This document shows, one piece after another, positions 25,119 to 25,823 of a stretch of 51,874 bases of DNA. Both the position numbers and the translations under genes were made by a program. The stretch lies in the sequence record PZ386979.1; one strand, written 5' to 3'. Numbering within the stretch: position 1 is the stretch's first letter; each line of letters begins with the position of its first letter. Under the pieces are notes generated by a model. That model was given only the letters and a program-made list of their open reading frames with translations, had not been told where the DNA came from and searched no databases. Source of the DNA: a phage.

Positions 25119-25823
25119 TTAGCAGCCGCAACAGCCAGTAGGCGGAGTCTGCGGAGTAGGCAACTTGAAGTTTACCAATTGCTCTACCTGGTTGATTTTG
25201 CAATTCAGTGCGGCTGTCTGGTTTGCCTGAGATAGAGCAAATCGCGCCTCCTGCAACTGAGCTTTCATATCGCAAATCAAAACAGCCTGAGAATCAGCAA
25301 ACTGTTGGCGCATCAGATCTCGCGTTGCATTGCCTTGTCGCTCAATATTCAGGTTTGTCTCACAGCAACATCTCTCCGCTGCAATTTGTGCCTGATAGGA
25401 ACGCTCAAGAGCATTAACATCAGCAGCATTAATCGCAGCAACTGTCTGGTTAGTACCGCTAACAATCGCGGTATTCAGTCCGGCGAAACCTTGCACCGAT
25501 GCAAGCAGGTTTTGCGTATTCTGGCTGGTAATGCCGTTAAAGGTTGATGCGGCGGAGCGCTCAACGGTAAGGTTTGTGGAGTTTTGGCCTTGCAGAGTTT
25601 GCAGCCCCAGGTTGTTTACGCCTGTCTGGATGTTATTAATACCATCAAGAACAGCGTTAGCACCGACAGCAACAGCAGCACCATCACCACCATAACCACC
25701 ACGACCATTAAAGCCGTTACCAAACCATGACCCAATCAGGCCGCCAACAGCACCGCCAAGACCAGCCGCGCCAGCTTCGCCACCAAAACCACCACCAGTA
25801 GGGAGTAAAGTCATATCTGACAT
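25119..25823 (-). CDS. glycine-rich protein (putative tail fiber-associated adhesin/assembly factor)
   Basis: Start at ATG 25823 behind AAAGAGGAA RBS; N-terminal poly-Gly block (GGGFGGEAGAAGLGGAVGG...GRGGYGGDG), Q/N/T-rich middle, Cys-rich C-terminus (..ERCCCE.. ..PPTGCCGC); immediately downstream of tail fiber gene. Confidence 0.5.
   Translation of the reverse strand: MSDMTLLPTGGGFGGEAGAAGLGGAVGGLIGSWFGNGFNGRGGYGGDGAAVAVGANAVLDGINNIQTGVNNLGLQTLQGQNSTNLTVERSAASTFNGITSQNTQNLLASVQGFAGLNTAIVSGTNQTVAAINAADVNALERSYQAQIAAERCCCETNLNIERQGNATRDLMRQQFADSQAVLICDMKAQLQEARFALSQANQTAALNCKINQVEQLVNFKLPTPQTPPTGCCGC

Follow-up and report, generated by a model that had tools for sequence, protein, structure and literature searches.

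What does a glycine-rich protein with clusters of cysteines do beside a phage tail fibre gene, and does it belong to the fibre at all? This question is raised by a protein of 234 amino acids (aa), here called G, that is encoded at positions 25119-25823 of the sequence record PZ386979.1; the whole analysed stretch of 51,874 nucleotides (nt) is referred to as the window. The original prediction had taken G for a distal adhesin or a fibre-assembly factor, with a membrane-active or a bacteriocin-like protein as the fallback. Judged from the genomes that we compared, G is the separately terminated first gene of a cassette that is a mobile accessory unit, and we tentatively propose that the protein acts at the cytoplasmic membrane.

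A four-gene cassette apart from the fibre

The window is the genome of a T1-like Hanrivervirus (Drexlerviridae). Its G region is 98% identical to that of Escherichia phage vB_EcoD_Fulano1 and 93-98% identical to other Hanrivervirus genomes, including the BASEL phages JakobBernoulli and KarlJaspers. The gene order is as in those Hanriverviruses: the plus strand encodes exonuclease, Erf-like recombinase and SSB, after which the minus strand encodes primase, lateral tail fibre and G. The ATG of G is preceded by a ribosome-binding site (GAGGAA) 7 nt upstream. A longer open reading frame (ORF) reaches to 25871; it is not the G gene, since the homologues begin at the same MSDMTLLP. We conclude that the G gene is real and under constraint, far beyond chance. 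A search of a large protein database yielded 230 homologues at E <= 1e-3, and an exhaustive profile search yielded 123 cluster representatives, the great majority of them 200-290 aa long and most of them aligned over most of their length. G matches the family PHROG 9288 over its full length (E 1.6e-124, residues 1-233 on profile positions 1-234 of 234), and the ratio of nonsynonymous to synonymous substitution rates (dN/dS) of intact copies against their relatives is 0.03-0.22, which indicates strong purifying selection.

In the window, G is followed by three genes that encode proteins of 107, 163 and 85 aa, here called H107, B163 and S85 (Table 1). The order G-H107-B163-S85 is the same in CAjan (gp21-24), Sasha (gp07-10) and PY100 (ORF29-32) and in almost all of about 40 close loci. 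Within the close group, G is always followed by a homologue of H107 (CAjan gp22, Sasha gp08, PY100 ORF30); the homologues of S85 are CAjan gp24, Sasha gp10 and PY100 ORF32. In the window phage, the cassette appears to have come in as an insertion, with the lateral tail-fibre gene on one side and the SSB gene on the other.

G does lie downstream of the tail fibre gene, as originally described, but not directly. A spacer of 178 nt separates the two genes, and it holds a terminator-like hairpin, which closes the tail-fibre transcription unit, and a promoter-like element. In this element, which stands some 50 nt before the G start codon, a -10-like hexamer (CATACT) is followed at 7 nt by an inverted repeat (GTAAC-N6-GTTGC). 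The arrangement is kept upstream of G in Hanrivervirus, Seuratvirus, Nonagvirus, Sashavirus and PY100. The repeat is 100% paired in 15 distinct sequences, and three of its five pairs have compensatory changes on both sides (variants GTAAC/GTTAC, GTAGC/GCTAC, GTGGC/GCCAC and GTAGTC/GACTAC). We regard the element as the putative promoter region of the cassette itself, where the inverted repeat could form a hairpin at the 5' end of the mRNA or serve as an operator for a cassette-encoded regulator. A second terminator-like hairpin stands directly 3' of G and likely attenuates transcription into the three downstream genes; the GenBank record of Sasha has a terminator annotated at the equivalent place, after gp07.

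The cassette also occurs away from fibre genes. In Sasha, its neighbours are the large terminase gene on one side and the portal gene on the other, and in PY100 it is surrounded by hypothetical genes, upstream of dam and ssb; no fibre gene is annotated nearby in either genome. T1 has the same fibre-terminator-SSB arrangement as the window, and the cassette is absent from it. Within Hanrivervirus, DNA identity over the G region stays at about 93-98% beside three different fibre modules: a 585-aa fibre with an S74 domain in the window, a 741-aa fibre in JakobBernoulli, and a 651-aa fibre plus two extra genes in KarlJaspers and phiE31-2. For one of the extra genes, the annotation of KarlJaspers gives a putative fibre chaperone and that of phiE31-2 a peptidase S74 domain protein, and KarlJaspers carries G besides this separate chaperone. 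As far as these genomes tell, it is established that G is co-inherited with the three downstream genes and not with the fibre, and that the cassette is independent of fibre genes.

We weighed the reading of G as a distal adhesin, or as a factor that assembles the neighbouring lateral tail fibre, in the manner of T-even gp38, and consider this very improbable. It is suggested by the position of G downstream of the fibre gene and by the labels of homologues in GenBank (MZ501079, MZ501090, MZ501091, OQ955832), which read 'putative sugar-binding protein' in the BASEL phages or 'lateral tail fiber chaperone' in two records. These labels appear to have been given by position or weak similarity, and they are likely to spread via annotation transfer; the BASEL paper contains no discussion of the gene and no basis for the 'sugar-binding' label. 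The evidence from the genomes points the other way, as a terminator separates G from the fibre gene, the G region is nearly constant beside exchanged fibre modules, and the cassettes of Sasha and PY100 have no annotated fibre gene close by. Furthermore, a chaperone is already present: the S74 domain that had been named for the upstream fibre is there (Pfam Peptidase_S74, residues 465-520, E 1.8e-6), and KarlJaspers has its separate chaperone plus G. The fibre protein of the window also matches tail-fibre PHROGs; since these alignments start at residue 21, ATG 27699 is a likelier start of the fibre gene than the listed TTG 27759. A search of G against Pfam-A with hmmscan at E <= 1 returned two sub-threshold unrelated families only, with no direct gp38 alignment made, and any Pfam gp38 or tail-fibre-assembly model was therefore also unmatched. 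Tail-fibre chaperone families gave no match for G in Pfam or NCBIfam. Lastly, a hydrophobic helix replaces the glycine block in distant relatives of G, as described below.

The cassette is broken or missing in several relatives. In Salmonella phage 9NA (L165, 2501-3066), a deletion runs from about codon 46 of G into the third cassette gene, and gp12 consists of the first 45 residues of G (MSDMTLVPTS...GGWGG) followed by out-of-frame sequence. JakobBernoulli (Bas07; L001, 4420-5124) has a stop at codon 78 of G. In the protein P0160 (11 contigs), an in-frame deletion fuses G to the third cassette gene (163 aa), and in Shigella phage 2019SD1 (L047) the cassette is rearranged. These four disruptions are independent of each other and occur in viable phages. 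The T5-like Epseptimavirus phages contain only decayed fragments of G, without the three partner genes (Salmonella phage vaffelhjerte, L006, 4749-5426; phage H8, L049); these fragments sit between a receptor-binding gene candidate and a small reverse-strand gene. The candidate is a 755-aa gene downstream of the pb4-like tail gene that probably encodes the receptor-binding protein, and the reverse-strand gene may be llp-like. From the broken or missing cassettes together with the low dN/dS of the intact copies, we conclude that the cassette is accessory, that is, useful in nature and unnecessary in culture.

Architecture of G and its distant relatives

The features read from the translation in the original prediction are present in the 234-aa ORF: a glycine-rich N-terminal block, a Q/N/T-rich middle and the cysteine clusters ERCCCE and PTGCCGC. 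Overall, the protein consists of 13.7% Gly, 13.2% Ala, 9.8% Asn and 9.0% Gln. Glycine makes up 22 of the 64 N-terminal residues, and the middle is rich in Gln, Asn, Thr and Ala. The cysteines stand at residues 152-154 (ERCCCE), 184, 208, and 231, 232 and 234 (PTGCCGC). This architecture is established from the ORF and from two alignments, one of close homologues (A1) and one of the diverse family (A3).

Within the glycine-rich block, residues 17-37 form a zipper ladder, (G/A/S)xxxGxxxG, with a hydrophobic opposite face. No variation occurs in A1 at G27, G31 and S32, and in A3 the two glycines are conserved to at least 90%. We regard this segment as a putative membrane-inserted, oligomerising segment; in the AlphaFold2 model, the predicted local distance difference test (pLDDT) is below 40 over these residues. 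A weak PHROG match links G to Gly-rich parts of tape-measure proteins. What varies in G is the linker and the count of QGFxGLN repeats, and not the sequence between the Gly motifs (A1, A3). In phages of Escherichia, Salmonella, Yersinia, Hafnia and Aeromonas alike, both termini are conserved and show no variability of the receptor type.

AlphaFold2, run on a 37-sequence alignment, predicts residues 1-64 as disordered, one continuous helix from residue 65 to 220 (about 155 residues) and a disordered tail. The model, one helix of low confidence, offers no meaningful basis for a fold search. Few residues of the rod are charged. Its hydrophobic periodicity is stronger at 3.67 than at 3.5, and a heptad analysis found no clean coiled-coil register.

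The cysteine motifs are conserved. The CCC triad occurs in 132 of the 135 distinct full-length family members and in 151 of the 154 close homologues, and phages of other phyla retain CCCETNRNI. At least two cysteines within the last 15 residues are found in 104 of the 135 family members. Among the close homologues, Cys208 and the terminal CC are both present in 104 and both absent in 47, with the tail only in 3 and Cys208 only in none; these counts are uncorrected for phylogeny and a few independent events may underlie the pattern. This co-occurrence suggests that Cys208 and the terminal CC share a disulfide or a metal site.

Table 1. Features of G, its cassette and further genes of the window (positions in the window; residues are those of G)
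Feature	Position	Strand	Basis
G coding sequence (Gly-rich, Cys-rich, 234 aa)	25119..25823	-	ATG at 25823, stop codon 25119-25121; ORF and translation
Glycine-zipper segment, residues 17-37 (A19-G23-G27-G31-G35)	25713..25775	-	Spacing from sequence; conservation in A1, A3
Rod, residues 65-220, one long predicted alpha-helix, including the QGFAGLNT motif and the conserved C-terminal half	25164..25631	-	AlphaFold2; A1, A3
CCC triad, Cys152-154 (TGT TGC TGT), inside ERCCCETNLNIE	25362..25370	-	Family conservation
Residues 221-234, Pro/Thr-rich tail ending GCCGC	25122..25163	-	A1, A3
-10-like hexamer CATACT (25888-25893), then inverted repeat GTAAC-N6-GTTGC (25865-25880)	25865..25893	-	Conserved across phage genera
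Terminator-like hairpin and T-run, closing the tail-fibre transcription unit	25964..25987	-	Terminator scan: 10-bp stem, 7 GC pairs
Terminator-like hairpin and T-run directly 3' of G	25093..25112	-	Terminator scan
Cassette gene 2, H107 (107 aa; His/Asp-rich N-terminal part, helical C-terminal part)	24749..25072	-	PHROG 9157 (unknown function)
Cassette gene 3, B163 (163 aa; small beta-rich fold, acidic Pro-rich tail)	24243..24734	-	
Cassette gene 4, S85 (85 aa; helical)	23999..24256	-	PHROG 7239 (unknown function)
Lateral tail-fibre gene with C-terminal Peptidase_S74 intramolecular chaperone (context only, outside the cassette)	26002..27759	-	Pfam and PHROG matches
Holin	34686-34898		Window
Endolysin	34901-35386		Window
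u-Spanin	35392-35787		Window

An exhaustive profile search together with scans of viral and genome contigs detected distant relatives of G, and the family is thereby established as widely distributed. In 71 of the 135 distinct full-length members, a hydrophobic helix flanked by Gly runs stands in place of the Gly block (e.g. WVWVFFLFFLLAW, FVYLVWIWAF). These transmembrane-type relatives keep the QGFxGxN repeats, CCCETN(R/L)NI, ATRxL and a Pro-rich stretch (LRPFPTPAY or FKLPTPPTPP), and they retain the terminal Cys cluster (e.g. GCGNGCGC or GCCGC). They match both PHROG 16490 (E 7e-36) and PHROG 9288 (E 7e-6), which links the two families. The alignments thus show, at the level of sequence, that the Gly block is exchangeable with a hydrophobic helix across the family. 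The transmembrane-type members lie on phage- or prophage-sized contigs that were binned with Oscillospiraceae, Lachnospiraceae, Negativicutes, Treponema, Bacteroidales, Melainabacteria, Mycoplasmatota and others, where the binning of metagenomic phage contigs can be unreliable.

A conserved module surrounds the transmembrane-type G (loci L050-L162). It starts with a 76-aa sigma-70 region-4-like protein, a protein of about 150 aa and a Met-rich 71-aa protein, which are followed by G, then by a small jelly-roll protein (BclA_C-like, E 6.5e-6, or of a Cys-rich 125-aa type) and by DUF7841 or a 200-aa protein. The BclA_C-like (C1q/TNF-like) small protein partners G in 55 of these loci. The module usually follows tail and lysis genes, and in many loci it abuts endolysin and holin-like genes. 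Several of its proteins have CC motifs or a C-terminal Cys. The idea of a spore-coat or exosporium protein, which came from the BclA_C-like neighbour and the Cys-rich proteins, was dropped: contigs binned with Treponema, Bacteroidales, Negativicutes and Mycoplasmatota, all non-spore-formers, carry the family too.

The partners of G differ between the two branches. Profile-profile comparison with hhalign detected no relation of the three enterobacterial partners to the neighbours of the transmembrane-type relatives, and G appears as the sole universal component across both branches. G and its three neighbours had no match above threshold in Pfam, NCBIfam or PADLOC, and among the PHROGs they matched only families of 'unknown function'. 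In H107, B163 and S85, no N-terminal signal peptide or lipobox was seen when the sequences were judged by eye. H107 carries a His/Asp-rich tract (GHDKDYDRDHEHD in the window, HHHHHYHHGHH in Sasha gp08), which, beside the Cys-rich G, hints at metal binding. A MazG-like identity had been considered for H107, and no profile match backs it. In CAjan (L004, 6782-6985) and Sasha (L005, just after gp10), the cassette is followed by a fifth small Cys-rich ORF of 67-70 aa (MCGNTNRCC...CNC), which has no counterpart in the window.

Possible action at the membrane or on the virion

As a tentative interpretation, we propose that G is a membrane-anchored, self-associating helical rod with functionally important thiol clusters, encoded by a lead gene with its own promoter, that acts at the cytoplasmic membrane together with soluble partners. 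In this proposal, we infer as follows how G inserts into the membrane, is oriented there, oligomerises and is cross-linked through its thiols, and what its biological role would be. After the short acidic N-terminal peptide MSDMTLLP, the glycine zipper would insert into the cytoplasmic membrane and drive self-association. A Gly/aromatic linker would lead to the alpha-helical rod of about 155 residues, which would probably face the cytoplasm, and the thiol clusters (the CCC triad, Cys184, and Cys208 with the terminal CC) may lock the oligomer via metal ions or disulfides. Together with the three soluble partners, G would form a membrane-tethered, thiol-linked coiled-coil scaffold that alters the envelope of the infected cell. 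Candidate roles would be the exclusion of superinfecting phage genomes or the tuning of membrane integrity, with no receptor binding on the virion. The membrane-active half of the original fallback is thus the one that we favour, on account of the glycine zipper and of the hydrophobic helix in the relatives, whereas the bacteriocin-like half found no support.

Several points weigh against this proposal. The zipper of the window protein is only weakly hydrophobic (Kyte-Doolittle value of 1.18 over 17 residues) and, by our own estimate, no Sec-type transmembrane helix would be called there. The confidence of the AlphaFold2 model is low, with a pLDDT of 60-80 in the helix 65-220 and a mean of 58. 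In the transmembrane-type members, the N-terminal flank of the helix has values of 0.78 for K+R and 1.89 for D+E, and the C-terminal flank 0.64 and 0.53; these charges weakly favour an N-out, C-in topology, and the call is weak because flanking charges are few. Every database match of the family is of 'unknown function', and the biological role, be it exclusion or the tuning of the envelope, is our guess among several. As for the gene context, G adjoins fibre or receptor-binding genes in Hanrivervirus, Seuratvirus/Nonagvirus and T5-like lineages, and the transmembrane-type G neighbours tail and lysis genes and a BclA_C-like jelly-roll protein; all of these positions would suit a virion appendage as well. 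The loss of the gene in lab-propagated phages is also typical of accessory fibres.

In an alternative that we regard as rather unlikely, G is a rod on the virion: a trimeric coiled-coil fibre or needle on the tail, whose hydrophobic or Gly-rich N-terminus would insert into the host membrane during infection. The plan would be like that of the P22 gp26 needle or of a class I fusion protein, in the transmembrane-type phages with a separate jelly-roll knob, for which the BclA_C-like partner would be suited. An alpha-helix rises by 1.5 A per residue, and the predicted helix would thus measure roughly 23 nm. The position of G beside fibre or receptor-binding genes, or after tail genes in the transmembrane-type loci, is consistent with such a rod, and a separately terminated first gene can be interpreted as what is expected if a structural subunit is produced in larger amounts than its partners. 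Among solved structures, moreover, the family profile matches only influenza HA2, from the first residue of the fusion peptide, although this similarity is largely compositional (see below). On the other hand, an intact gene is missing in 9NA (deletion), Bas07 (nonsense) and T1 (none), and the cassettes of Sasha and PY100 lie away from annotated fibre genes. The termini of G are conserved across phages of five host genera and lack the variability of receptor-binding proteins, and the partners are completely different between the two branches of the family. We found no paper on the G family in the literature and no virion proteome of a phage with an intact cassette; the virion proteome of STGO-35-1 is uninformative, as this phage is not among the megablast matches to the cassette.

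If the membrane-anchored rod is the correct interpretation, hundreds of enterobacterial phages and many uncultured phage-like contigs carry such a thiol-rich protein with lineage-specific partners. The carriers would include BASEL members and relatives of 9NA, 9g and T1, as well as uncultured contigs binned with gut Clostridia, Negativicutes, spirochaetes and Bacteroidales. A new family would be added to the short list of phage proteins that act at the cytoplasmic membrane, and the position-based labels in GenBank would be corrected. The function of G is directly testable with existing strains, because natural knock-outs (the nonsense mutation in Bas07 and the deletion in 9NA) exist beside intact relatives.

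Elsewhere in the window, a small lipoprotein ORF (MKKLIAVLIAAVALTGC...) at 20626-20853 on the minus strand has the position of the superinfection-exclusion gene Cor in T1. The G region of this E. coli Hanrivervirus is also matched by 19 'Campylobacter phage' records (host C. jejuni; including MG065636, MG065637 and MG065669), a host label that looks doubtful. Three of these records, among the matches listed, are 94-96% identical.

Comparison with known systems

We lastly compared G to known protein families. The closest are PHROG 9288, which G itself matches, and PHROG 16490, which its transmembrane-type relatives match; both are catalogue entries without a function, a structure or a described gene context. 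With the T-even gp38 adhesins (T2/T6/S16 type), G shares its richness in glycine and the position of its gene downstream of a fibre gene. The glycine motifs, however, are not gp38-like as had been supposed: gp38 has a C-terminal array of Gly motifs that are split by hypervariable loops, whereas G has a single conserved N-terminal Gly block. G further differs in its body, which is predicted to be helical, and in that it does not co-vary with the fibre.

A comparison to lysis proteins raises the possibility, quite unlikely in our view, that G is a lysis accessory (holin-, antiholin- or spanin-like) that tunes the timing or completeness of lysis. The i-spanins and the T4 holin are built of a membrane segment at the N-terminus and, after it, a long helical domain that has conserved cysteines. 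G could be described in the same terms, and in the i-spanin Rz of phage lambda, as perhaps in G, cysteines may link between molecules. Signal-anchor-release (SAR) domains, which the Gly/Ala-rich segment of G resembles, can leave the membrane, and many transmembrane-type modules abut endolysin and holin-like genes. Yet G lies about 9 kb from a complete set of holin, endolysin and u-spanin, and since the window has these genes of its own, a specific lysis role for G is unnecessary. Different from Rz, G stands outside the lysis cassette, has no o-spanin partner, and has a charge-poor rod without a clear heptad repeat. No lipobox was seen by eye in same-strand ORFs of at least 20 aa that overlap G or in the cassette partners. 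The three partners have no lysis-protein matches, and contigs binned with monoderm bacteria, which have no use for spanins, carry members of the family.

Least probable of the readings considered here is that of a bacteriocin-like toxin, of the colicin or microcin type, that is released at lysis. The Gly-rich, aromatic-studded N-terminus of G resembles both the Gly-rich class II microcins and the translocation domains of colicins, which are disordered; it is followed by a long helical region, and the protein has terminal cysteines. However, the scans against Pfam, NCBIfam and PADLOC detected no toxic domain and no immunity, lysis or export gene for G or its neighbours. Double-glycine leaders are of the type LSxxELxxIxGG, and the N-terminus of G, MSDMTLLPTGGG, is not of this type. 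An integral hydrophobic helix in the relatives, and the same core motifs on contigs binned with several bacterial phyla, also speak against a bacteriocin.

Among solved structures, the sequence of G alone reached E 0.05 and the family profile reached E 0.003 at best; the top 60 hits were all influenza HA2 (E 0.003-0.03). In most of the alignments listed, the match begins within residues 1-5 of HA2, in the fusion peptide, and extends into helix A. None of 1000 segment-preserving shuffles attained the real score of 19.8 bits (mean 4.8, standard deviation 4.5, maximum 18.4). We judge the similarity to be a resemblance of layout that is mostly compositional and probably not homology. The shared order is that of a Gly-rich hydrophobic peptide, a G/W/Y-rich stretch and the start of a long helix. 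Class I fusion proteins are activated by cleavage, form trimers and refold into a hairpin, whereas G gives a marginal score and comes from a phage without an envelope; the tail needle gp26 of P22 is a phage analogue of such a plan. It is our guess that the resemblance to HA2 may be the source of the 'sugar-binding' label in the BASEL phages. A further-reaching reading, which we consider unlikely, is that the G family is a widespread, unrecognised class of membrane-remodelling phage proteins, that is, zipper- or transmembrane-anchored, Cys-knotted coiled coils that would act like a class I fusion protein or a penetration needle. Contigs that carry the family were binned with single-membrane as well as double-membrane bacteria. 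Such proteins might open the cytoplasmic membrane, fuse it or seal it when the genome enters, when superinfection is excluded or at exit. The probability that remains after these readings belongs to an explanation not yet conceived.

For the membrane-anchored rod that we tentatively favour, the comparison is with transmembrane glycine-zipper proteins, a class that includes the N-terminus of VacA and the glycine-zipper outer-membrane lipoproteins. G differs from them in that no Pfam glycine-zipper family is matched and in that its insertion and the formation of a pore or oligomer are putative. Shared with them is the zipper ladder, in which G27 and G31 are invariant among the close homologues of G, and in the relatives of G a transmembrane helix replaces this ladder.

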